32,698 nucleotides of DNA from Rhodothermales bacterium (lineage in GTDB: Bacteria; Bacteroidota; Rhodothermia; Rhodothermales; UBA10348). The stretch is from NCBI GenBank assembly GCA_030833605.1, contig JAURGV010000001.1:1-32698 (forward strand). The letters run 5' to 3'. The notes under the pieces were generated by a model. The model was not told where the DNA came from. It searched no databases and saw only the letters and a program-made list of their open reading frames with translations. A program made the position numbers and the translations under genes. Below, piece by piece: positions 7,573-30,997 of the stretch; the first letter of the stretch is position 1, and every line of letters begins with the position of its first letter.

Positions 7573-9318
7573 TTACCGCAGCCACAAATCCGTTGTTGAA
7601 TGGGCCTTTGCCCCAGTCTTTTTATCGACTACGATAAGATCTATTTGATATAAGCCAGGCACATAGTCCGCTAGATCAAGGATAACATAGTTGGCTTGAT
7701 TGATCGTGCTCGCGGTGTAGGCAACAGAAACGGCGACTTTTGCGCTTTCTGGTTGCAGGACTAGGTCGGTCAGTTTTTTGAAAACGTCGATGACTAGGCC
7801 TCGGGGCTGATTGAACTTCGTGAGTTGAATGGTGAGGTCAAATCCACCCTGTGCGCCCGATCCTTTTTCCAAACCAATATTGTATACCTCAAAATAGATG
7901 AACGGCGCGGTGGATGCGGAAACCACGCGGAAAGGCAAGGGATAAATGGCATAGCCGTTTCGCTTCAGAAAAACTCCTTTTGCGGCTTTTTGCCCCTTTT
8001 TCGAATCGGAGGAATCGTCCTCTTCTACCAACGTCGAAAGCACCGGCGACGAAACGCTAAAAATTGAATAATCCAGTTTTTGGTCTATAGTGGTTCTTAG
8101 GGCAGCGATCTGGGCATCCGTTTGTCCTTCCACAATCACTTCAGAGGGCACTACATCCACATTCAGCACGGTTGGTTTGGTCCAAACATTAAGCGAATCC
8201 ATCGGAACGCTGTATCTGCCAGCAGGGATGTCCTCGTTGGTTACCTCGCCTCCAAAAATGGTAGCGTTTGAGTTTCGAAGAAAAATACCCTGATTGAATT
8301 TCATAGAGGAGACTGCATTGGACTGTTGAGCGAGTGGAACGCCCGTCGTAACCAATACATCAACTCCACTTTCCATCCCTTTCAAAAACGAAATGGCGTA
8401 CGGGATCTCAAACGGCTGCTTTTTAGGTGGATCCGGTGTAGTTGGTTGTTGTCTAAATACATCCTTAGTCATAATGACATCTGCACTCGGAATTACCCAG
8501 TCACCAGAACTCCACTCATCATCAAAACGGAAGCTACCCATAGTAGGGATGACAAGATTTAAACCTTTAGGAATGGGCCTGTCCCCCATTCGTGTACCCG
8601 AATAATCGCCTGATTCCATGTTCGAATAGGTCGGAAAACCGTACCTCACGATTAAATCCCCGGGCGTGATGTAATCATCCTCATACAGGTATGTGCGCCA
8701 AAGTGGATACAACAAATCCGCGAAAACCAATCGGGCATAATGAGATACGAGTCGCTCGTTTTCCCGCGTTAGTAAAAAAGGGTCACCATTTTTCCAGCTT
8801 TCCAGACCTGTTGAGTCTTCCCAAGCTACCAAGTCTGAAACGTCGAGAAACGCAGCTTTTTGCTCTGGAGATAGCATCGCCAAAGCCCGACTGAATTGAA
8901 TTTCAGCCGATGCATAGTCGCCCAGCAGCGTTCTGGTTAATCCCCGTAAGAACCAGGCTTGTGGAGATTGTGGGATGAGCTCTCTAAACCGACCCGTTGC
9001 GTCGTCAGCTAAAGAATAATCTTCAATTTCAATTAAGTGGGATATAAACGAGATATGTGGGCAAGGATTCAGAGGCTCCTTAAACGTTGAAGTCGCTAAC
9101 AGACTGCCCGCCGTTAAGCGATCAGCTAAAGCCTGTTCTTTTCGTAAATCTACCTGCGAATTTCTGTACTTTCGGGATTGACGGCTCAAGAACGAACCAA
9201 CAATAGCATATCCCTCGTATCTAGTACTATCAAGAGCCATCAACTTATTGCCGACCCGTAGAAGGGTCACGTCGCGCTGAGATTGTGCCCCATAGTACGT
9301 GAATCCTCTATTTAGCAA
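7573..9318 (-). CDS. GWxTD-like / TPR-containing envelope protein, main body (probably the same gene as 9312-9656)
   Basis: This is a 581-aa ORF whose track start is a TTG, with no signal peptide of its own. The central segment SWKNGDPFLLTRENERLVSHYARLVFADLLY...YITPGDLIVRYGFPT resembles the FWxxRDP...NE...YxR...GWxTDRGxxYIxYGxP core of GWxTD domains, but the GW motif is degenerate. The C-terminal ~200 aa are beta-rich and Ig-like. Confidence 0.55.
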   Translation of the reverse strand: MLNRGFTYYGAQSQRDVTLLRVGNKLMALDSTRYEGYAIVGSFLSRQSRKYRNSQVDLRKEQALADRLTAGSLLATSTFKEPLNPCPHISFISHLIEIEDYSLADDATGRFRELIPQSPQAWFLRGLTRTLLGDYASAEIQFSRALAMLSPEQKAAFLDVSDLVAWEDSTGLESWKNGDPFLLTRENERLVSHYARLVFADLLYPLWRTYLYEDDYITPGDLIVRYGFPTYSNMESGDYSGTRMGDRPIPKGLNLVIPTMGSFRFDDEWSSGDWVIPSADVIMTKDVFRQQPTTPDPPKKQPFEIPYAISFLKGMESGVDVLVTTGVPLAQQSNAVSSMKFNQGIFLRNSNATIFGGEVTNEDIPAGRYSVPMDSLNVWTKPTVLNVDVVPSEVIVEGQTDAQIAALRTTIDQKLDYSIFSVSSPVLSTLVEEDDSSDSKKGQKAAKGVFLKRNGYAIYPLPFRVVSASTAPFIYFEVYNIGLEKGSGAQGGFDLTIQLTKFNQPRGLVIDVFKKLTDLVLQPESAKVAVSVAYTASTINQANYVILDLADYVPGLYQIDLIVVDKKTGAKAHSTTDLWLR

Positions 9319-9656
9319 AAAACTTTGACCAGTAAGGGCTCAATAGCATCTCCATTCAGCCCTAATTCTAAATCGAGTCTATAGGCTGCAAGGGTATGGC
9401 TGCCTCGTTCTAGGTCTTGTCCAATTTGGGCATAAGACTTCGAGTTCAATTCCTTGAGGGCCGTATACCATTCAAAAGATTGCAATTCACTTTTGGGGTA
9501 AATCGTATTCCCATCCTCAAACTTGATATTGGCTACGGGAAGACACGATTGACCATAACCCTTCTGTGGGAACCAGGAAAGCAAAACAAAAAGTGCAAAT
9601 AGGCTAGTTCTCAAGACCAAACCTACTCTAATGATTGTGCTGAGCGTGGTCGCCAT
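9312..9656 (-). CDS. signal-peptide-bearing 114-aa ORF, likely the N-terminal part of the 7573-9318 gene
   Basis: MATTLSTIIRVGLVLRTSLFALFVLLSWFPQKGYGQ is a plausible Sec signal peptide. The ORF ends at 9312-9314 inside or next to an A6 run (T6 in the coding sense, 9317-9322) and overlaps the next ORF by 7 nt in a different frame. Confidence 0.5.
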   Translation of the reverse strand: MATTLSTIIRVGLVLRTSLFALFVLLSWFPQKGYGQSCLPVANIKFEDGNTIYPKSELQSFEWYTALKELNSKSYAQIGQDLERGSHTLAAYRLDLELGLNGDAIEPLLVKVFC

Positions 9657-10128
9657 GGTCGCTTACTTGGGCATCAAACCAAGCGTGGATCGCAGAAACC
9701 AATATGGGATTTTCAGTAAAGTACCGAATCTCCGCGCCTGTTTCTATCTCATCGAAGGCAATGGTTATCTGCTTATACCCCATCACCAGTTCATGAAGTC
9801 CGGGCATCGCGGCGCCATGAATCATCGTGGGATCGTGAAAATTTCCGCTCGCGAAACGAACTGAAATATCTTTGAGGTGCTCCCTTATTAGTCGGATCTG
9901 GGTTGGATCGTCGGAATCGGCAACTACTTGTTGAAGCCCGCCATCTGTCAGTTTTTCGAAGATGTGCGTTGTCGCTCCCAGGTCGAAAGGCATCACTTCT
10001 GCCCCTTTTTCAGCGACTTCTGCCCTTCTTTGGTCCATATTTGCCGGCGTAGAGCCCTTCGGCTCTGTCGATTGGCATCCGATGCTCGTGCCAGTGATTA
10101 GCGCAATTACAAGAAGGTAATATTTCAT
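9628..10128 (-). CDS. conserved hypothetical lipoprotein with His-rich C-terminal tail
   Basis: I start at MKYYLLVIALITGTSIGC, the 6th codon of the track ORF, which gives a signal peptide plus lipobox Cys. The mature domain contains MPFDLGATTHIFEK...GNFHDPTMIHGAAMPGLHEL. The C-terminus is VSDHGDHAQHNH. Confidence 0.6.
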   Translation of the reverse strand: MKYYLLVIALITGTSIGCQSTEPKGSTPANMDQRRAEVAEKGAEVMPFDLGATTHIFEKLTDGGLQQVVADSDDPTQIRLIREHLKDISVRFASGNFHDPTMIHGAAMPGLHELVMGYKQITIAFDEIETGAEIRYFTENPILVSAIHAWFDAQVSDHGDHAQHNH

Positions 10129-10230
10129 GGCATCCGATCTCATTTACCCAAAATTATCGCCATTGCATTTTAACCGAGCCAGGCGATGCCCAATAGTACT
10201 GAAATAGACTGTTATTTTAAGTACCCCCAT

Positions 10231-11924: not shown

Positions 11925-12704
11925 ATGAAAAGAGCTGTCCTCTTTCTGTTTTTATGTATTCTTTCCTCGCCGAGTTGGGGACAGGATTTGCTGGCATTCG
12001 CCCCTTGGGAAGCCCGTTTCGACACGTATTACTCCTCGGAACGACCTTTCTCCCAATTCGGAGTAACCGTTCAGCGTTCGGTACCCGTGGAAACTTTGCT
12101 ACCCCAGGTCACAGCCGACTCCTATATAAACGCCCTCAAAGGATACGTTGGAAGCCGTTTTTTGGATCAAAAGCACGATCGTGTTCGCTTTCAACTTATG
12201 GCCGCAGACATCCGACTGCAGCGCGCGTTTACTTCAGGAGGAGTAAAGCTGCTAGACTATAATCAGGCTGATGAACTGGAACGGTCCTTGACCTGGATTG
12301 AAGTGACGTTCGGCCCGGGTTTTCATTATGATGGTCAAAAAGCGACGTTTTGGGGTCGCATTACGGCATCTGGATCGGTAGCTAGTTTGAAACCCGGTAC
12401 GTTTCTGTTTAGCAACAATGCAGACGCATCCTCTGCTTCGAGTGGGCTAAATTATGCAATCAGCGGCCTTCTGGGGACAAAACTTGCCGATCGGATTGTA
12501 CTGTCTGCCAACGTTTTTAAAGAAGAAGCGCGTCACTCGTCATTTACGCATTCAGGTTGGTCTGCGAATGGCATAGTTCAGGTCGCATCCAAATGGAGAG
12601 TAGCCACAGGGTTCACCTCCCATGCGTTCGACTTAGGTGCCTCCAAAAACAACACTGAATCGTTCGAATTCAGCATCCAGTATAGTCCCAGCGGAGCCCG
12701 CTAA
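11925..12704 (+). CDS. hypothetical secreted protein, possibly a small outer-membrane beta-barrel
   Basis: This 259-aa ORF has a signal peptide (MKRAVLFLFLCILSSPSWGQ). The second half has an alternating polar/apolar pattern. I recognise no family. Confidence 0.5.
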   Translation: MKRAVLFLFLCILSSPSWGQDLLAFAPWEARFDTYYSSERPFSQFGVTVQRSVPVETLLPQVTADSYINALKGYVGSRFLDQKHDRVRFQLMAADIRLQRAFTSGGVKLLDYNQADELERSLTWIEVTFGPGFHYDGQKATFWGRITASGSVASLKPGTFLFSNNADASSASSGLNYAISGLLGTKLADRIVLSANVFKEEARHSSFTHSGWSANGIVQVASKWRVATGFTSHAFDLGASKNNTESFEFSIQYSPSGAR

Positions 12705-13835: not shown

Positions 13836-14390
13836 CTAGAAAATCAATCGAAATGCGATCACGCCCACCCCAATTTGCATCACGCCCAAAGCTAAACCCG
13901 ACTGAACATCGAGTGTTTTAACTTTTTGCTTTAGCCGTTTGTCGCCTGTTTTCAAGTAATCGTTGAATCGATTGTCGGCTTTCGTTCTGAAATGGATAGC
14001 AGCCATTCCCGATAAAACAGACACGCCGGTGGCTATCGTTATCCATTTTTTGTTGCTTCGAACGGCGTCGATGCCAAACTTGGGCTTTAATGTGGTGTCT
14101 ACAACTTGGTTTACCACAAAATTTGCCACTATGCGTTGAACAGGGTCGTCGTTTAATTCAACATCAACGTGTCGGTTAGTCCAAATATCCTTGTCGGGAT
14201 GCTTTACGGAAATGACCTTGGTAGACGACTGCACCGTAAACGGAGACTGCGAAACCGTTCCAATCATTACTGAATCGGCAAAGACCTGAGCTTCAGAAAA
14301 ATTCGATTCTACGTGGATAACTCGTTGGGCTGCAACTGGTGAGGCGCCCAGCAATAACCAAGCAAATAGGATGAGGCATCTAGTTATCAT
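13836..14390 (-). CDS. hypothetical envelope protein: signal peptide, PEGA-like beta domain, C-terminal TM hairpin
   Basis: This 184-aa ORF has a signal peptide (MITRCLILFAWLLLGASPVAAQ). The segment IHVESNFSEAQVFADSVMIGTVSQSPFTV looks PEGA-like. Two hydrophobic helices lie near the C-terminus (WITIATGVSVLSGMAAIHF and GLALGVMQIGVGVIAFRLIF). Its start overlaps the upstream stop by 11 nt. Confidence 0.55.
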   Translation of the reverse strand: MITRCLILFAWLLLGASPVAAQRVIHVESNFSEAQVFADSVMIGTVSQSPFTVQSSTKVISVKHPDKDIWTNRHVDVELNDDPVQRIVANFVVNQVVDTTLKPKFGIDAVRSNKKWITIATGVSVLSGMAAIHFRTKADNRFNDYLKTGDKRLKQKVKTLDVQSGLALGVMQIGVGVIAFRLIF

Positions 14391-15552
14391 TCGATTCCTC
14401 CTTAAAGTACGTCACGTATCGAGGCTCACTTAATACAATTAAACCGCCATCGGCTACAGCCATCGCGGATTTGATTCGTCCCCTAAGCGCTGTTTCCCAC
14501 TTTACTTCTCCCGTAAGTCGATCCAATGCGTACAGGTGCCGCCCCATGGATCCAACAAACACCAAACGATTCGTGATTAGCGGCGCAGCAACAATCGCAT
14601 CGGGAAAAGCAGATTCCCAAACTGTGCTTCCATCCGTGCTATTGAAGGCTCTGACGATACCGTCGGTCGCAGCTACAACGACTAACTCATCGTCGACAGC
14701 ACTGCTGCCCATTCTAACATTCGCGCTGCTTAACTCATTGCGCCACAACACCTTTCCTGTTGAAGCATCCAGTACATCTAGCGCTCCCCTGGTGGTAGGA
14801 ACGATTATACGATCACCGAAAGTTGAGCCACCTTCGTAACTGGGACCTGATAATTTTTGCGTCCACAGTTGACGTCCATCCGAAGCGTTAAACAAAAACG
14901 CGTTCCCAGCATCGTCGGCAACAAATACCGATAAGTCCCCAACCTGCAACAATGCACTCTGCACGGAAATTCCTTTCCCTAGCGATTGCGACCAGGACAT
15001 TTTGCCTGTTGAGGGGTCATATCCTGTTACGAATCCGTCCACATCGGCAGCTACCAACACGCCATCTACAAGAACCATCCCTGACTCTATAGGGACACCC
15101 TTGTTTCGCCAAACGAAGCTTCCCTTTTTCAAATCGAAGGAGGTCAACGTGCGTTTTCCCCACGCTGAGGCCACAATTAACTTCCCTTCGTGAATGATGG
15201 GGCTCCCTTCGATGCCCTCCCCAAAGCTTTTAATGCCACGTTTTGCACCCGTTTTCAGCTCAATAGCGTGCATCTCCCCTTTTTTATTGGCAACCAGTAC
15301 AACTCCTTTCAGAAGTAGAGGAGATCCCTGTCCAAATGCTGCGGCCGCATTGTATTCCCACTCCAAAGTTAGTGGCGCTTGGAGGTCCTCATCGTAGCTT
15401 CGGCTTCGGCTTAAGTCGCCGCTGTCAACAAGCCAATCCTGGGAAGACGAAATGCTAGGTTGTTGAAACTGAATCGTTTGACAACCAGCCCCTAACAAAA
15501 AGGCGAAAGGCAGCACCGCAGCGGAAAACCATATGTTTGGAATACGCTTCAT
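14380..15552 (-). CDS. PQQ-like (BamB-like) beta-propeller lipoprotein
   Basis: I start at MKRIPNIWFSAAVLPFAFLLGAGC, the 43rd codon of the track ORF, which gives a signal peptide plus lipobox. The start lies 1 nt after the upstream stop. The body has repeated ~40-aa blades of the form G.V.A.D..G.L.A.D..TG...W (for example DGFVTGYDPSTGKMSWS, GALDVLDASTGKVLWR, DGIVRAFNSTDGSTVWE, RHLYALDRLTGEVKWE). Confidence 0.8.
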   Translation of the reverse strand: MKRIPNIWFSAAVLPFAFLLGAGCQTIQFQQPSISSSQDWLVDSGDLSRSRSYDEDLQAPLTLEWEYNAAAAFGQGSPLLLKGVVLVANKKGEMHAIELKTGAKRGIKSFGEGIEGSPIIHEGKLIVASAWGKRTLTSFDLKKGSFVWRNKGVPIESGMVLVDGVLVAADVDGFVTGYDPSTGKMSWSQSLGKGISVQSALLQVGDLSVFVADDAGNAFLFNASDGRQLWTQKLSGPSYEGGSTFGDRIIVPTTRGALDVLDASTGKVLWRNELSSANVRMGSSAVDDELVVVAATDGIVRAFNSTDGSTVWESAFPDAIVAAPLITNRLVFVGSMGRHLYALDRLTGEVKWETALRGRIKSAMAVADGGLIVLSEPRYVTYFKEESNDN

Positions 15553-15553
15553 A

Positions 15554-18439
15554 TTAAAAATCCCACCCAAAAAAGAACTGTTTGAAGGTCTTGTCCTTTT
15601 CCGTAAACCCGTTTCGATAGCGATAACCCAGATCGTAGCGCAATACAAAGGCTCCAAAAAGGTTAACCCGGAGTCCAAATCCAGCGGAGCCCACGGTTTC
15701 CCCTGATCTGATTTCGGAAATCACCTGATCGTAGTCCTTATTCCAAGCATGAGCTGCGTCGAAAAACAACGTTCCACGCAAATGGGCTACACCAAACGGA
15801 GCCAAAATGGGTACTAAAACGGTCGGAGCATTAATAAGCGGGAATCTCAATTCATGGGATGTGAACCACATTTTTTGCCCCCTAACATCGAACCAGTGGA
15901 ATCCTCTCAAGTCCCAACTCCCACCTAAAACCGATAATCGTGCTTCCCTTCCCTCGTTAATGCGAACCATTCCCCATGAGGCAAAGGTCACGCTGTTAGA
16001 CAATCGAAAATACTTTCTCACGTCAACGATGACGTTGAAATAGCTTACATTCGAGTACAATACATCGGATGTGTATCCAAGCGATACCGAGCCGCGCCAT
16101 CCCGCCACGGGACCGTTCATCCAATACAATGCCTGATCCCGAACGAACGAAACGGAGTTGGACAACAACAGGGCTTCTCGTTCCACTCCTTTCAAATGAA
16201 TGTCTTTTCGCGTCCAGTTCATGGACGTCAGCATTTCAAAGCGACTGAATTTGGAAAGCGGATAACTGAGCAATCCATATGCACCGTAAACCGTCTCAAA
16301 GAACACAGGGAACGTTGTAGGCGCATCAGGATCGGTGACATCGTAGCGTCGTCCCGAATACCGGTATAAACCGTACCCAATATTTACGCGTCGTTTTAGC
16401 TTAAATCGAGAGAGTTGCAGGCTGAGGTCTCTAAGAAAATCCCCGCTTCCCGTCCCGGTATTAAATAGGGTTAAATACAGGTAGTCATCTCCCAACATGT
16501 CTGAAAACGCGAGGACGGCTCCCCCAGTCGTGCCCAAAACCGAGTTTTGGCTTACTAATCCTTGGGCCAAATCAAGATTGTATCTCCGCTTGTAAGGAGA
16601 CTTTTCATAGTCTACTCCATCTTTCAAACGGCTGTACGACCACGGCCGTCCAATTCCCGATAAATCAGCCATGGCCGTTGATTTTGGCGACGATAGCAGC
16701 GAATCAACCTTAGCCAGCTTTCTAACGGTGAAGTTTAGCCCTTCAAAACTCGTAAACACAATATGATTGGAATCTGCCCAATACGGATCACTCGCCGACG
16801 ATGACAACCGGGTCAACTGTGTTGTTTTCTTATCCGCTGCGGTCATGTCGACCGACCATATATCCTGCGCCGAATACCTCCCCGTTGAGTCTCGTTTGGT
16901 CGAGATGTAAGCAAGGGCTCTCCCATCTGGACGCCATGTCGGAGACAGATCCGTTTGTTCTCCAAAGGTTACATAACGAATGGAGGCGTCTGAAAACTGA
17001 TACGTAAAGATATTGTAGTTGCCCTCGTAACCGGTCGAGGTTCTGTCGGAAGAAAAGGCAATTTGTTGTCCATCTGGGCTCCATGAGGGGTCGCGATCAT
17101 CGTAAGAATCCTGCGTAAGGGCTGTCAATTGAGCGTTTTCGCGATTGAACACATAAATATCACTAAAGCCCTCACTCGTGATACCCGAAAACACCATTTT
17201 CCTTTCGTCCGGGCTCCAGGTGGGTGAGTACACAGCGATGAGATCGTCAAATCGATAGGTATTTACAATTTTATCGGCTTTGAGATCAAACACATGGATA
17301 ACATCCTGACCGCCCGACTTGGTCACAAAGGCCAATAAACCACCCGATGAAACGGAAATACGGCTCTCAAATAAATGAAAAGCTTCCAACTCACCGTTTT
17401 GCTCTCCTTGAATGAGCACTTTGGGTTTTGATATAGGCTCGAACGCATCGTTCACTTCGACCTCAAACACGCTGCTCAAACCACTCGTATTGCCCACGAA
17501 ATAAACTTTTTGCGAGCCGTCCTCAAATCGGTGATAGCTGGGCTTGGCATTAAATCCTTCTGTTGCGAGCCCGCCTGCGGCAAGGGACGTGATTTCTACA
17601 TCTTTCAGCTGCGGGTAGTACTGTTCTTGCAGCCATTTCAACCATTTCTGAGAAATGGTTTCAAAATCGTCCTTCAGCGTGATTTCCAAAACCACCCGAA
17701 AATCTCGATCCTTCCAAATGTTTTCGATAATCTCTAGAATCTTTTCCTCACCATACTTTTCCGAGAAGAATCGATTTATGGCCTCTCCTTGCTTGTACAT
17801 CACATAGGAGCCCTGAATGCGGTACATGGATTCGAGAGGCACCAAATAGTTCGTGAACAAGGCATCTCGAATCACCATTTCATGCTGGTCGTCGGGTTCT
17901 CCCGACCAGTATTCAGCAAGACCTTCTGTAAACCAAAGTGGGAAAAACCGGTCGGATGGTCGCCTATGATCCCGTAGCACTCGGGTCAACTTGTTGTACG
18001 TATACACGTGGACCATTTCATGCCGAATAACTCTACGGAATCGATGTAGGTTACCATTCGCCGGTATGACCACCCGTCCTTTTAGAAATTCAAAAAATCC
18101 ACCGACTCCATCTGGGATAAATCCAGAGGTCACATTGGTTTGCTTGAAATGGAGGTTTGACGAGTAAAAAATGAGCGGAACGCGGTGGTTCAGCGAGAAA
18201 TTAAACTTGTGTTCAAGCTCTGCATACGCTTCTTCCGCAAAAAAAGCACCATGCTCAGCGAGTTCGAGCATTTCGGGATAATAGTAGATATCGAAATGCT
18301 CGGTTTTCATGACCTGCCAGTCAAAATCCTCGTACTGGATTTTATTTCGGCCGAAATGGTAGTTGAATTGAGCCTCAGTGACCTGGACACAAAAAAACGA
18401 CAGCACCAAAAAAATGAAAATCGGCGATATTCTTGCCAT
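15554..18439 (-). CDS. secreted fusion protein: HExxH peptidase-MA-like domain + PD40/TolB-like beta-propeller + C-terminal Omp85-type beta-barrel
   Basis: This 961-aa ORF has a signal peptide (MARISPIFIFLVLSFFCVQVTEAQ) and HEMVH followed by TEGLAEYW. It carries PD40 signatures SPTWSPDERKMVF, DPSWSPDGQQIAFSS and SPTWRPDGRALAY. The C-terminal ~330 aa are beta-strand-like, with GGSWDLRGF (like the Omp85 loop-6 RGF motif) and the terminal sequence FFFGWDF. I could see no POTRA-like repeats. Confidence 0.75.
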   Translation of the reverse strand: MARISPIFIFLVLSFFCVQVTEAQFNYHFGRNKIQYEDFDWQVMKTEHFDIYYYPEMLELAEHGAFFAEEAYAELEHKFNFSLNHRVPLIFYSSNLHFKQTNVTSGFIPDGVGGFFEFLKGRVVIPANGNLHRFRRVIRHEMVHVYTYNKLTRVLRDHRRPSDRFFPLWFTEGLAEYWSGEPDDQHEMVIRDALFTNYLVPLESMYRIQGSYVMYKQGEAINRFFSEKYGEEKILEIIENIWKDRDFRVVLEITLKDDFETISQKWLKWLQEQYYPQLKDVEITSLAAGGLATEGFNAKPSYHRFEDGSQKVYFVGNTSGLSSVFEVEVNDAFEPISKPKVLIQGEQNGELEAFHLFESRISVSSGGLLAFVTKSGGQDVIHVFDLKADKIVNTYRFDDLIAVYSPTWSPDERKMVFSGITSEGFSDIYVFNRENAQLTALTQDSYDDRDPSWSPDGQQIAFSSDRTSTGYEGNYNIFTYQFSDASIRYVTFGEQTDLSPTWRPDGRALAYISTKRDSTGRYSAQDIWSVDMTAADKKTTQLTRLSSSASDPYWADSNHIVFTSFEGLNFTVRKLAKVDSLLSSPKSTAMADLSGIGRPWSYSRLKDGVDYEKSPYKRRYNLDLAQGLVSQNSVLGTTGGAVLAFSDMLGDDYLYLTLFNTGTGSGDFLRDLSLQLSRFKLKRRVNIGYGLYRYSGRRYDVTDPDAPTTFPVFFETVYGAYGLLSYPLSKFSRFEMLTSMNWTRKDIHLKGVEREALLLSNSVSFVRDQALYWMNGPVAGWRGSVSLGYTSDVLYSNVSYFNVIVDVRKYFRLSNSVTFASWGMVRINEGREARLSVLGGSWDLRGFHWFDVRGQKMWFTSHELRFPLINAPTVLVPILAPFGVAHLRGTLFFDAAHAWNKDYDQVISEIRSGETVGSAGFGLRVNLFGAFVLRYDLGYRYRNGFTEKDKTFKQFFFGWDF

Positions 18440-22387: not shown

Positions 22388-22882
22388 TCAAGAAGAAGAC
22401 TCGTCTTTTTTACGATTTCTAAGATAACTGGCAAGTTCGGAACCCACCATGGATACGCCAGCCTGCATCACTTGCTTGAGTGCAGAGCTCAGCATACCCT
22501 CCGATTCCTTACTTAATCTCATGATGGGAGGCTGTTCTTCAAATGCCCTTTTGACGGCATCGTCTGAACTCGACCCGTGTTGAAGCAGATCCGCAATTCT
22601 CGATGCTAATTGGCTAGACAATCGAGAAACACCGTCGTCGTAGTCGATTTGTTTTGACGAAGACCGCCGTCCAAAAATAATCAGCCCCACTAGTAAACCC
22701 GCACCAACGGATAGCACAATCTTGGATGATTTGTGTTCTTTAATGAAAGAAGCCACGGAAGGCATTTTGCCAGGCATTTTTGATTCAAACGACTCGAAAC
22801 GACCCGAAATCGACTCGCTTTTCTCCTTCAGCCGTTTTTCTAGCTCCGCCCGGGATAACGATTCAGGGGGCATGTTACGCAT
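22388..22882 (-). CDS. hypothetical single-pass membrane protein
   Basis: This 164-aa ORF has a charged coiled N-terminus, one TM helix (IVLSVGAGLLVGLIIFG) and a Ser-rich amphipathic C-terminus. It overlaps the upstream gene by 8 nt. I recognise no family. Confidence 0.5.
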   Translation of the reverse strand: MRNMPPESLSRAELEKRLKEKSESISGRFESFESKMPGKMPSVASFIKEHKSSKIVLSVGAGLLVGLIIFGRRSSSKQIDYDDGVSRLSSQLASRIADLLQHGSSSDDAVKRAFEEQPPIMRLSKESEGMLSSALKQVMQAGVSMVGSELASYLRNRKKDESSS

Positions 22883-23351
22883 GATTCATCTGGTTAGGGT
22901 CAATCTGTTTTGGGGTTTCGTTTTCTTTTCCGGCAACCTCAGAGAGCTGCGCTACGGGTTCTGTTTGAATCGATTTTTGCTCCTCTCCCCTGCCAAATCG
23001 AGGTCTTGAACGATTTAACAGGAAGGCCAATCCGGCCATCACAACGCCCACAATGATATATCCGAAAGAAGGATGCCCCAGCCATAAACTCAAGGCTTCG
23101 GCAATGGCAATTAAAAACATGAGCCCCGCAAACACGCCTAAAACAGCCACCAGCAAAAGCGAAATAATCTTACTTGCAGCGGCTTCAATCCGCTCCTCTA
23201 CCTCGATTTGAAGCAATTTAACCCTTAGGTCCACCCAATCCTTGAGATCGTTGATCAATCCTTTGGTTTCCCGTGCGATCGACTTCAGCTTGGACTCGCT
23301 TCCAGGTTCTTCCGCTATCTTTTCGGTGGAGTTCTGTGTTTTTTCAGTCAT
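22875..23351 (-). CDS. holin-X-like (Phage_holin_3_6 family) membrane protein, chromosomal stress-type rather than phage
   Basis: This is a 158-aa ORF. LINDLKDWVDLRVKLLQIEVEERIEAAASKIISLLLVAVLGVFAGLMFLIAIAEALSLWLGHPSFGYIIVGVVMAGLAFLL shows an amphipathic helix followed by two TM helices, which is the pattern of that family. Confidence 0.55.
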   Translation of the reverse strand: MTEKTQNSTEKIAEEPGSESKLKSIARETKGLINDLKDWVDLRVKLLQIEVEERIEAAASKIISLLLVAVLGVFAGLMFLIAIAEALSLWLGHPSFGYIIVGVVMAGLAFLLNRSRPRFGRGEEQKSIQTEPVAQLSEVAGKENETPKQIDPNQMNHA

Positions 23352-28816: not shown

Positions 28817-30733
28817 CTAGAGCTCTTTCACACAAACGTACGCTTCTACTGCGTGAAATTCGGGTAGCCCTAGCGCGTTTAACCGGTTGGCTGTACCCTG
28901 ATTTCTGTCCCGCGCACGTTCCCAAAACTCGCGAACGTCATACGCTCCAGGATACATAGCTCGGTCTTTTTGACTTTCGTGTTTGAAAATAGCTTCGATT
29001 TTACGATCCAAATCGGCTTTTGACATCGGCAAATAGACATCTGCCTTATCAATTTCCCATTCCTGCCACGCACCACGATATAACCATACCGTTGGATGTG
29101 AACTGGTTTTAGGATGCTTCTTTTTGAACTCAATAAGCGCTCTTTCAATCGCGAAATAGCACATCCTATGCGTTCCATGCGGATCAGAAAGATCCCCGGC
29201 CACAAAAATGTGAGCAGGCATTTTCTCCTCTAATTGCTCGAGAACGATCTTCACATCGGCGTCTCCAATGGGCATTTTTCGGACTTTTCCCGTTTTATAA
29301 AACGGCATGTCCAAAAACCTTGCATGACGCTCATCCAATCCCATAACCTCAATGCCAGCAATGGCTTCCGAGTACCGGATATAGGCCTTTACCTGCTGAA
29401 CATTAACCGAATCAACCTGTCCAGGCGGCTTAGAAGACATGGCTTTGCTCAACTTCTTCAAGCTGGCTTGTAGGTCAGAAAGGCCGTTTTCACCAATGAA
29501 CAGATCGCCGGCCATTTCCATAAATCGAACATATCGAAGTACGTCTGAATCGAAAACGGCTACCGAACCGTTGGTCATGTAGGAAACGGTAACGTCGTTT
29601 TTATTGCCAACCAATGCATCTAGCATGCCTCCCATCGAGATCACATCATCGTCGGGATGCGGACTAAAAACGATTACTTTTTGCTCTGATGGCAAATTCT
29701 CTGCGTACTGAATGCGTTTCCGTAGCGTCTCAAAAACGTGTTTGCAGAGCTGGTACGTATTCTGGTGGCCATACGCCAAACTGTGCAAATGGTGGCGGTG
29801 AAAATCGCCTTCCTCAAGCCGTAAAATGGCCTTCCCTACTTTTTCTGCCAACCAAATAACAGCGCGAATGGAGAGCTCTTCGGTCCACTGAACCGGCTTA
29901 ACTACCCAAGGTGTTTTGACTCGAGTAAACTCGCTCGACGCCGCCTCATCGCAATACATGGAGGCATCACGGTGTTTCTGCAGAAACGAAGCCGTAATCT
30001 TGTTGGTAGGTTCTTCCTCAACCGCTTTTCGAACAATGGGTGCTTTGTGTTCACCGGTTGCCATGAGAATGATTTCGCGCGCGTCCAAAATGGTACCAAC
30101 ACCCATCGTAATCGCTTCTCGGGGCACGTTCTCGTCACCGAAAAAGTCGCTCGCAGCGTCTTTTTTCGTGATTTCGTCCAGGATGATCAGTCGTGTGCGC
30201 GTGTCAATGCCAGAGCCCGGCTCATTAAATCCAATATGCCCACTTCGTCCGATCCCAAGAATGAGCAGGTCAATGCCACCAAATTTTCTGATTTTGTGCT
30301 CATAGGAAAGGCAATATTCTTCCACTTCTTCCCGCTTAATATCCCCTCTAGGAATATGAATATTGGCTTTGGGAATGTTTACGTGGTTGAAAAAATTCTC
30401 GTGCATGAACCGATGATAGCTTTGAAGACTATCGGGCGCCATCGGGTAATATTCGTCCAGGTTAAACGTCACGACATTCGAGAAGTCCAATCCCTCTTTT
30501 TGGTGCATAGCAATGAGATGCTGATACACACCGATTGGAGTAGACCCGGTGGGTAAGCCTAAAACGACTTGCTTACCTGCGGCCTGTCGTTCTTCGATTA
30601 ACGAAGCAATTCTTTTGGCGACCTGGAGTGAAAGTTGACCTGGCTGATCGAAAATGAGAACGGGAATTTTTTCGCGTTGTGAGCCTTCTGCCGTATTGCC
30701 CTCAAAAGGCTGACCACTGTCAGTGATAGACAT
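28817..30733 (-). CDS. nagB: long-form glucosamine-6-phosphate deaminase: NagB domain fused to a C-terminal LmbE/PIG-L-type deacetylase domain
   Basis: The start is set at MSITDSGQPF, the 50th codon of the track ORF. NagB motifs are LGLPTGSTP, FNLDEYY and GIGRSGHIGFNEPGS. The C-terminal half has the PIG-L motif VIVFSPHPDDDVISMGG, and later DPHGTHRMC. Confidence 0.88.
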   Translation of the reverse strand: MSITDSGQPFEGNTAEGSQREKIPVLIFDQPGQLSLQVAKRIASLIEERQAAGKQVVLGLPTGSTPIGVYQHLIAMHQKEGLDFSNVVTFNLDEYYPMAPDSLQSYHRFMHENFFNHVNIPKANIHIPRGDIKREEVEEYCLSYEHKIRKFGGIDLLILGIGRSGHIGFNEPGSGIDTRTRLIILDEITKKDAASDFFGDENVPREAITMGVGTILDAREIILMATGEHKAPIVRKAVEEEPTNKITASFLQKHRDASMYCDEAASSEFTRVKTPWVVKPVQWTEELSIRAVIWLAEKVGKAILRLEEGDFHRHHLHSLAYGHQNTYQLCKHVFETLRKRIQYAENLPSEQKVIVFSPHPDDDVISMGGMLDALVGNKNDVTVSYMTNGSVAVFDSDVLRYVRFMEMAGDLFIGENGLSDLQASLKKLSKAMSSKPPGQVDSVNVQQVKAYIRYSEAIAGIEVMGLDERHARFLDMPFYKTGKVRKMPIGDADVKIVLEQLEEKMPAHIFVAGDLSDPHGTHRMCYFAIERALIEFKKKHPKTSSHPTVWLYRGAWQEWEIDKADVYLPMSKADLDRKIEAIFKHESQKDRAMYPGAYDVREFWERARDRNQGTANRLNALGLPEFHAVEAYVCVKEL

Positions 30734-30997
30734 AGTATGGGTATTAAGATTTAGATCAGGGCGAATTAGCAAAATAGTGAAAGCATTTTTTTGAAAGTGC
30801 ACTTCTTCAAATAAAAAATTGAATAATACGCTAGTGGTGTAGGCATCCGTCCTACATGGTTTCACCTCAATGCCCGACACAAACCCTCACGTACCGCCCC
30901 CAGTGGATGCCTTAGAGAATTGATTAATTACACTTGTCGCAAGGACTTTAATTCTCTTGCTTCAAGCCAATAACGTGTTAGAAAAACGGCATTTCAG

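Follow-up and report, generated by a model that had tools for sequence, protein, structure and literature searches.

In the window analysed here, a stretch of 32,698 nucleotides at the beginning of contig JAURGV010000001.1 (assembly GCA_030833605.1) from an uncultured Rhodothermales bacterium, one gene encodes a 961-aa protein in which a zinc-peptidase domain and a TolB-like beta-propeller precede an Omp85 beta-barrel that lacks POTRA domains (Table 1). The gene codes for an ordinary member of the WD40-like Omp85 subfamily, and the architecture as such is not new, as this subfamily was catalogued in 2014 and has remained uncharacterised. What is new is the invariance of the catalytic residues, the linkage of the family to genes for a BamB-like lipoprotein, a third small protein and TamAB, and the spread over at least 500 genomes. 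Taken as a whole, the observations are best explained if the protein is a periplasm-facing zinc peptidase that is tethered to the outer membrane and acts, together with partners, in the processing or quality control of envelope proteins, and we assign a probability of roughly 0.6 to this view. The original prediction, which had been made from the nucleotide sequence without database searches, had already proposed a barrel-tethered periplasmic protease, and this remains the most likely reading, but the novelty that it claimed for such an arrangement fails, as the WD40-like subfamily has been known since 2014 (PMC4104836).

All motifs quoted in the original prediction were found in the protein, in an open reading frame whose strand had not been indicated and is the minus strand. 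The signal peptide was read from the sequence, and the gluzincin layout of an HExxH motif with a downstream Glu, the PD40 propeller and the Omp85 barrel with its loop-6 (L6) motif were borne out by hidden Markov model (HMM) searches, structural modelling and profile comparisons. An AlphaFold2 model of the whole protein, which was built from 54 orthologues and reached a mean predicted local distance difference test score (pLDDT) of 80.5 and a predicted template modelling score of 0.73, consists of a mainly helical domain (residues 42-287), the propeller (289-590), a linker, and the barrel up to residue 959. In a Foldseek comparison with the PDB, this model matched TolB as well as BamA and Sam50 structures. 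The four-part layout is beyond chance, since thousands of homologues have the same arrangement. At the predicted signal-peptidase site, Q24 is invariant among the 54 orthologues, and such a mature N-terminal glutamine fits the “Bacteroidetes Q-rule”, under which it becomes pyroglutamate. A lipoprotein identity of the 961-aa protein was considered and rejected, as Cys17 varies among the orthologues. Residue conservation was otherwise assessed in a set of 118 diverse full-length members with 28-53% identity to the query, and domain content by Pfam scans of 34 diverse members. The FGRNK(I/V)QY motif that opens the mature protein is conserved to 97-99% at G30, N32 and K33; it has low pLDDT values and is predicted to be disordered in both AlphaFold2 models, i.e. 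that of the whole protein and that of the N-terminal domain alone; this segment might be a partner-docking or an autoinhibitory element.

Conservation is highest in the peptidase domain, whose mean identity to the query is 0.39, while the barrel reaches 0.29 and the propeller 0.27. Besides the HExxH motif and Y215, the residues R122, P167, W169, E172 and G173 are invariant in all members of the conservation set, and E176 is conserved to 96%. E172 is the candidate third zinc ligand, and Y215 is, by analogy with M1 peptidases, the candidate for stabilising the transition state. In M9 peptidases, too, 28 residues separate the second His and the Glu, and an invariant Tyr some 75 residues after the motif is M1-like; with these residues the domain has what is required of an active gluzincin. 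The strict invariance of the HExxH motif, the Glu and the Tyr across divergent members argues for real catalysis, and the domain is probably active. At E<=0.01, Peptidase_MA_2 was matched by 29 of the 34 diverse members (best E=1.6e-16) and Peptidase_M9 by six. When the N-terminal domain was modelled alone (pLDDT 77.7), Foldseek retrieved M1 catalytic domains, namely those of IRAP, F3 (1z1w), PepN, LTA4H and ERAP1 (3qnf), as well as the peptidase domains of the M9 collagenases H (4ar1) and G. Neither an M48 nor a TPR match was obtained in the Pfam scan of the 961-aa protein.

The assignment of the middle part to a TolB-like propeller is clear from several searches. PD40 signatures are present at residues 405-417 (SPTWSPDERKMVF), 450-464 (DPSWSPDGQQIAFSS) and 499-511 (SPTWRPDGRALAY), Pfam PD40 (PF07676) matches with three repeats at E=7e-19, above the cut-off, and all 34 diverse members contain PD40 matches. 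TolB was found in a profile search of the PDB with E=4.5e-27 and by Foldseek with E=5e-12. An orthology to TolB was nevertheless rejected, because the match to the NCBIfam model TIGR02800 (100.7 bits vs a cut-off of 343) is confined to the propeller (profile positions 205-387 on residues 369-567) and the N-terminal domain of TolB is lacking; the JGI name “Tol biopolymer transport system component” probably reflects the PD40 repeats alone.

The propeller is also matched by the Pfam families Tricorn_N, Tricorn_2nd and DPPIV_N, and such matches are found among the precomputed Pfam matches as well. They would fit a periplasmic oligopeptidase that serves nutrition or peptide turnover in the manner of the propeller-gated tricorn/F3 system or DPP-IV, with the barrel as a mere membrane anchor, and so would the resemblance of the N-terminal domain to M1 aminopeptidases including the tricorn-interacting factor F3. 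A GGFxE segment at residues 113-117 (G114 97%, E117 93% conserved), about 25 residues before the HExxH motif, may be added to this, as it presumably stands where M1 enzymes carry their GxMEN motif. Such an anchored oligopeptidase would, however, leave the conserved functional motifs of the barrel unexplained, and the genes linked to the family are BamB-like and TamAB genes, not peptide transporters, with a housekeeping neighbourhood in the window, which makes this explanation very unlikely.

The C-terminal part is a true Omp85 barrel with the lock between L6 and strand 13. Pfam Omp85 (PF01103) matches residues 777-957 with 36.9 bits at a cut-off of 24 (E=4e-9) and was found in 27 of the 34 diverse members (best E=5e-20), so that two of the three Pfam families expected in the original prediction, PD40 and PF01103, are present above their cut-offs, and the third, Peptidase_MA_2, stays slightly below (see below). 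Foldseek matched the barrel to BamA (4k3c), to BamA of D. radiodurans (8xnb, TMt 0.66), to Sam50 (7btw, TMt 0.62) and to TamA-type structures. The 16-stranded barrel corresponds in the model to 15 confident strands plus a weak one at residues 625-629, and if the latter is counted as strand 1, GGSWDLRGF comes to lie between strands 11 and 12, like L6 in BamA. Conservation is high at R845 (98%) and G846 (97%) of L6 and at E863 and R865 (97-98%), and the C-terminus FFFGWDF (residues 955-961) ends in F or Y in 98% of the members. In an hhalign comparison of the family profile with a POTRA-bearing TamA-like protein, the barrel alone was aligned, with a probability of 96.9% and E=1.5e-10, pairing LGGSWDLRGF with VGGSSTVRGY, ELRFP with ELRYS, and LFFDAAHAW with LFFDMGNAW. 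The NCBIfam models BamA TIGR03303 (18.6 bits vs 297) and Omp85_fam NF047779 (37 bits vs 200) scored far below their cut-offs. Phmmer searches with the isolated barrel and the isolated N-terminal domain against PDB sequences gave nothing meaningful, because both parts are too divergent for single-sequence searches and only profile and fold methods succeeded.

The absence of POTRA domains, as claimed in the original prediction, is supported by HMM searches, the model and hhalign alike. No POTRA family was found at E<=10 in the Pfam scan of the 961-aa protein, none of the 34 diverse members gave a match, and the POTRA part of the TamA-like protein had no counterpart in the family profile. Between propeller and barrel there is a linker of about 35-45 residues with a few short strands and no helices, whose residues Y616 and D623 are conserved to 92-97%, whose pLDDT falls below 50 at residues 622-636, and which may contribute strand 1 of the barrel. 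A cryptic POTRA domain was therefore rejected: there is no HMM match, the short, helix-free linker offers no room, and the N-terminal domain is wholly of peptidase fold.

The family is large and widespread. The nearest relatives are proteins of Rhodothermales and of Bacteroidota metagenome-assembled genomes (MAGs) that carry the NCBI name “BamA/TamA family outer membrane protein”, and the full-length architecture could be traced down to about 28% identity. An exhaustive search of representatives yielded 1,456 clusters (50% identity) at E<=1e-30, which is an upper bound on the family, as a few multi-PD40 proteins without peptidase or barrel score equally. In a survey of the phyletic distribution by genome scan, no fewer than 500 species-representative genomes proved to carry a relative, and most of them belong to the FCB (Fibrobacteres-Chlorobi-Bacteroidetes) group. 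Loci were compared in the best 80 of these at least 500 genomes (38-70% identity), which belong to Rhodothermales, Ignavibacteria, Calditrichia, KSB1, Chlorobi-like and other Bacteroidota MAGs.

In the window, the gene is the first of three genes that are joined by a 1-nt gap and an 11-nt overlap. The second gene encodes a lipoprotein with a PQQ_2 propeller (E=2.7e-48, above cut-off), whose best NCBIfam match is BamB TIGR03300 (E=1.5e-43). Among 75 loci with sufficient flanking sequence, which cover several FCB lineages, 64 have a BamB-like gene immediately downstream and on the same strand. The third gene, whose start is preceded by AAGGAGG, was found downstream in 50 of 67 related loci. Neither Pfam nor NCBIfam has a family that matches its product; a stretch of about 100 residues, which in homologues resembles PEGA below the threshold, is followed by two hydrophobic helices with a basic loop between them, and a K-x-x-A-D/N...Y...D..SG motif in and around this loop is conserved (also at L001:10245-11039 and L002:10248-11051 of the compared loci). 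From these features, it is probably an inner-membrane hairpin protein. A different context was found in three of eight distant representatives examined, of which those checked have about 27-31% identity: the members P0219, P0207 and P0212 directly follow, in the same orientation, a tamA-like (POTRA plus Omp85) gene and then tamB, where the genes are 10-14 nt apart or overlap by 4 nt (L084:194-9042, L085:1-9111 and the P0219 contig, from JGI metagenomes). The other five of the eight lack this tamA-like-tamB context, and the genes upstream of the members at L087 and L088, which were tested for TamB, are not TamB. Two independent neighbourhoods, the operon with the BamB-like gene and the tamA-like-tamB context, thus tie the family to components of outer-membrane biogenesis.

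Some further observations were made at these loci. In two of the three tamA-like-tamB cases, a uvrD-like helicase gene comes next. The distant member at L087 has an upstream gene (L087:3-3215) for a protein of about 1070 aa with an M6-like peptidase motif, FG-GAP/PQQ-like repeats and a type IX sorting domain (Por_Secre_tail), which is another pairing of protease and propeller, here secreted by the type IX system. Six of the loci without partner genes (L053, L060, L064, L066, L072 and L075, from Ignavibacteria-type and other Bacteroidota MAGs) share convergent downstream genes for proteins of about 216, 516 and 350 aa, which suggests a separate paralogous or lineage-specific clade.

On which side of the outer membrane do the peptidase and the propeller act? 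Both termini of a 16-stranded barrel would lie in the periplasm, and therefore the peptidase and propeller domains are expected to be periplasmic, like the enzyme domain of PlpD. The opposite topology would make the protein a surface protease, with the barrel serving as type V-like translocator that exports peptidase and propeller for the extracellular digestion of proteins and hence for nutrition. Bacteroidota-group bacteria often display hydrolases on their surface, Omp85/TpsB barrels are able to translocate polypeptides, and five of the 34 diverse members show weak matches to the ShlB/FhaC Pfam families. However, neither a POTRA domain nor a TpsA-like partner is found, and about 600 folded residues would need to cross a barrel with a conserved L6 lock. 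The surface-export signal of Bacteroidota lipoproteins contains acidic residues after the Cys, whereas none follow the Cys of the co-encoded lipoprotein, and the third partner apparently has an inner-membrane anchor. For enzyme-bearing Omp85 proteins, surface exposure was raised as an option by Heinz & Lithgow (PMC4104836), but in PlpD, which once served as the example of this type of secretion, the enzyme domain remains periplasmic (PMC11116518). Export of the peptidase to the surface appears quite unlikely to us.

With the peptidase on the periplasmic side, it may still be asked whether the protein degrades anything. It could instead be a biogenesis factor for outer-membrane proteins (OMPs) or lipids, i.e. 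a BamA/TamA-like insertase or an accessory of TAM or BAM, in which the propellers would be scaffolds and the peptidase would bind or chaperone its clients without degrading them. The conserved functional motifs in L6 and strand 13, the BamB-like partner and the tamA-tamB-X operons of one clade are compatible with such a role, and protein assembly is what Heinz & Lithgow hypothesised by default for Omp85 subfamilies of unknown function (PMC4104836). On the other hand, the strict invariance of HExxH, Glu and Tyr in the most conserved domain of the protein favours real catalysis, and there is no POTRA domain that could take over substrates or bind BamB, which in E. coli binds POTRA-3 (PMC13067283). 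We consider a non-degradative biogenesis factor unlikely, but this alternative overlaps with the favoured explanation if proteolysis serves biogenesis.

How could a periplasmic, membrane-tethered peptidase of this kind function? The protein is predicted to be exported by the Sec system and cleaved before Q24, and its C-terminal ~325 residues form the BamA-type barrel, so that the N-terminal part of about 600 residues would be held below the outer membrane on the linker of about 35-45 residues. The tethered part would be composed of the clan-MA zinc peptidase, predicted to be active with H140, E141, H144, E172 and Y215, and of a six-bladed TolB-like propeller, which may recruit, gate or filter substrates like the propellers of S9 peptidases and of tricorn. 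In a complex with the two co-translated partners, the BamB-like lipoprotein and the small hairpin protein that is probably located in the inner membrane, it would then carry out the processing or the quality-control degradation of envelope proteins, comparable to BepA at BAM, which is the most speculative step. It is conceivable, though rather unlikely, that the protein is the core of an unrecognised machine for OMP quality control or processing and that the barrel takes a more direct part: its BamA-like lateral seam would engage stalled or mis-assembled OMPs that bear a beta-signal, or substrates passed on by TAM or BAM, and feed them to the propeller-gated peptidase of the same polypeptide, which would make it a “BamA that degrades instead of folds”. 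Assistance in such a mechanism might come from the BamB-like lipoprotein and the inner-membrane partner in the FCB group, and from TamA-TamB in another clade.

Several points weigh against the explanation as an envelope-processing peptidase with partners. At 31.2 bits, the Peptidase_MA_2 (PF13485) match at residues 127-271 falls just short of the cut-off of 32.4, and the fold matches to M1 and M9 peptidases, which extend over about 275 columns with a TM-score of about 0.5, have weak E-values of 3e-3 to 9e-2. Strand 1 of the barrel was modelled with low confidence. The BamB match of the lipoprotein reaches 149 bits at a cut-off of 285, and PQQ propellers are generic scaffolds. In 11 of the 75 FCB loci and five of the eight distant members, neither partner context is present, and the links are therefore clade-specific. 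Finally, the adjacency of genes is not proof of a physical interaction of their products.

To our knowledge, the characterised Omp85 proteins all fold or translocate other proteins, and it was only recently that PlpD showed that an Omp85 scaffold can tether a periplasmic enzyme instead. Finding out what the peptidase-propeller Omp85 proteins cleave would extend Omp85 biology by a proteolytic branch and could reveal how non-Proteobacteria police their outer-membrane proteome, and the conserved operon partners are concrete handles on the function of this widespread family.

In the literature, Omp85 proteins without POTRA domains have been established for some time. In the classification by Heinz & Lithgow (2014, Front Microbiol 5:370, PMC4104836), the Omp85/TpsB superfamily comprises ten subfamilies, of which several, namely noNterm, Metallo and WD40-like, are POTRA-less. 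According to Table S2 of that study, the Pfam architectures of the WD40-like subfamily consist of PF01103 plus PF07676 repeats, and Table S3 lists about 100 members with matches to BamA/TamA (barrel), TolB (propeller) and aminopeptidase or collagenase folds, with 1z5h (F3), 4kxd, 4ar1 (collagenase) and 3qnf (ERAP1) in the column “best aminopeptidase hit”; among these members are D0MEQ5, D0MCT8, D0MJF6, D0MFK1, Q2S5S8, Q2S5G9 and Q2RZZ9 (PMC4104836). The main text of the same study discussed the propeller as indicating a “BamA-BamB fusion”, did not mention the peptidase and left the gene neighbourhoods of WD40-like members unexamined. We reject the fusion reading, as the fused propeller is of the TolB/PD40 type and a separate BamB-like gene follows. 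The D0M and Q2 accessions just named are, we presume, Rhodothermus marinus and Salinibacter ruber entries. A Leptospira paper from 2024 stated that the subfamily has divergent “WD40 and peptidase domains” (PMC11358297), and Hanson et al. (2024, PMC11116518) counted it among those that have “not been well characterized”. A literature search found no functional study of any WD40-like Omp85 member, and thus no characterised function for this exact architecture; an outer-membrane proteome paper on M. xanthus and a preprint on TamL do not mention the family.

Table 1. Positions of the peptidase-propeller Omp85 gene, its parts and its operon partners in the window
Feature	Position	Strand	Basis or remark
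Whole gene, peptidase-propeller-Omp85 protein, 961 aa	15554..18439	(-)	ATG start, TAA stop at 15554-15556; open reading frame, domain matches, full-length homologues
Sec signal peptide, residues 1-23 (MARISPIFIFLVLSFFCVQVTEA)	18371..18439	(-)	Read from sequence; predicted cleavage before Q24
N-terminal motif FGRNKIQY, residues 29-36	18332..18355	(-)	Opens the mature protein
Clan-MA (gluzincin) zinc-peptidase domain, residues ~24-288	17576..18370	(-)	Peptidase_MA_2, fold matches, conservation
HEMVH zinc-binding/catalytic motif, residues 140-144 (H140, E141, H144)	18008..18022	(-)	Invariant in 118/118 diverse full-length members
TEGLAEYW, residues 171-178, with candidate third zinc ligand E172	17906..17929	(-)	E172 is 28 residues past H144
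Y215, candidate transition-state-stabilising tyrosine	17795..17797	(-)	Invariant in 118/118 members
TolB-like PD40 beta-propeller, residues ~289-590, about six blades by strand count	16670..17575	(-)	PD40 and TolB matches
Linker, residues 591-636, with conserved YxLDxAQG	16532..16669	(-)	Model, conservation, alignment to the start of a TamA-like barrel
Omp85 beta-barrel, residues ~637-961	15557..16531	(-)	PF01103, Foldseek, hhalign
Loop-6 motif GGSWDLRGF, residues 839-847	15899..15925	(-)	Between strands 11 and 12 in the model
FFDAA, residues 892-896, strand 13, partner of the L6 arginine	15752..15766	(-)	F892 95%, D894 97% conserved
Second operon gene, BamB-like PQQ_2 propeller lipoprotein, 390 aa, lipobox LLGAGC	14380..15552	(-)	ATG 1 nt past the stop of the Omp85 gene
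Third operon gene, 184 aa, signal peptide, possible PEGA-like domain, C-terminal two-helix hairpin	13836..14390	(-)	Start overlaps the stop of the second gene by 11 nt

The genes around the Omp85 gene in the window are housekeeping genes, and scans for sigma-70 promoters and terminators gave no more sites than in shuffled sequence. Elsewhere in the window, genes for a small Phage_holin_3_6-like membrane protein and for a neighbouring protein of 164-180 aa without family match lie upstream of adk (window 22388-23351 on the minus strand; L001:592-1626), and this gene order is conserved in Rhodocaloribacter litoris. At 28817-30880 (minus strand), a protein of 687 aa is encoded in which a Glucosamine_iso (NagB/6-phosphogluconolactonase-like) domain is fused to a PIG-L deacetylase domain. 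Open reading frames of 581 aa (7573-9318, minus strand), 171 aa (9628-10143, minus strand) and 259 aa (11925-12704, plus strand) matched no Pfam family at E<=0.01, with a marginal TPR match of the 581-aa frame as sole exception.

Among the known systems with which the 961-aa protein was compared, BamA and TamA have homologous barrels with the L6 RG(F/Y) motif, the strand-13 FFDxx motif and an aromatic C-terminus, but they differ by their POTRA domains, and only the barrel aligns with a POTRA-bearing Omp85 protein. In canonical Omp85 proteins (BamA, TamA, TpsB, Sam50, Toc75), one or more POTRA domains precede the barrel, so that the statement of the original prediction that characterised members present POTRA domains is correct, and in this respect the protein described here stands apart. 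TolB is closest to the PD40 propeller in sequence and fold, but its N-terminal domain has no equivalent here, and likewise the propellers of tricorn and of the S9 enzymes DPP-IV and acylaminoacyl peptidase give similar Pfam matches, whereas the serine-peptidase domain of these enzymes is lacking. M1 aminopeptidases and M9 collagenases of clan MA have a fold similar to that of the peptidase domain, which shows HExxH, a downstream Glu and an invariant Tyr about 75 residues past the motif, but the identity is 9-15%, and neither the N- and C-terminal domains of M1 enzymes nor the collagenase activator domain are present; the family Peptidase_MA_2, into which Pfam would place the peptidase, is itself functionally uncharacterised.

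A functional analogy may be drawn to BepA, a zinc protease that acts on OMPs stalled at BAM (PMC13067283), as in both cases a periplasmic HExxH protease would be combined with a protein-interaction domain, and BepA clears defective OMPs from the Omp85 machine at which it is positioned. BepA differs in that its peptidase belongs to M48 and not to the Peptidase_MA_2 or M1-/M9-like type, that it uses TPRs and not a propeller, and that it is a soluble protein with non-covalent binding, whereas the peptidase described here is fused to a barrel. The architecture is identical in the WD40-like Omp85 subfamily, with its HExxH domain of aminopeptidase/collagenase type, TolB-like PD40 propeller and Omp85 barrel without POTRA, and the peptidase domain of the window protein matches the same structure families (F3, 4ar1, 3qnf) as the members in Table S3. 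PlpD, an Omp85 protein of the patatin-like kind, formerly assigned to type Vd secretion, likewise carries an N-terminal enzyme domain on an Omp85 barrel, and this domain was shown experimentally to stay in the periplasm (PMC11116518). PlpD contains a patatin lipase and one POTRA domain and forms homodimers, whereas the protein described here combines a zinc peptidase with a propeller and has no POTRA domain, but PlpD is the best precedent for an Omp85 scaffold that tethers a periplasmic enzyme.

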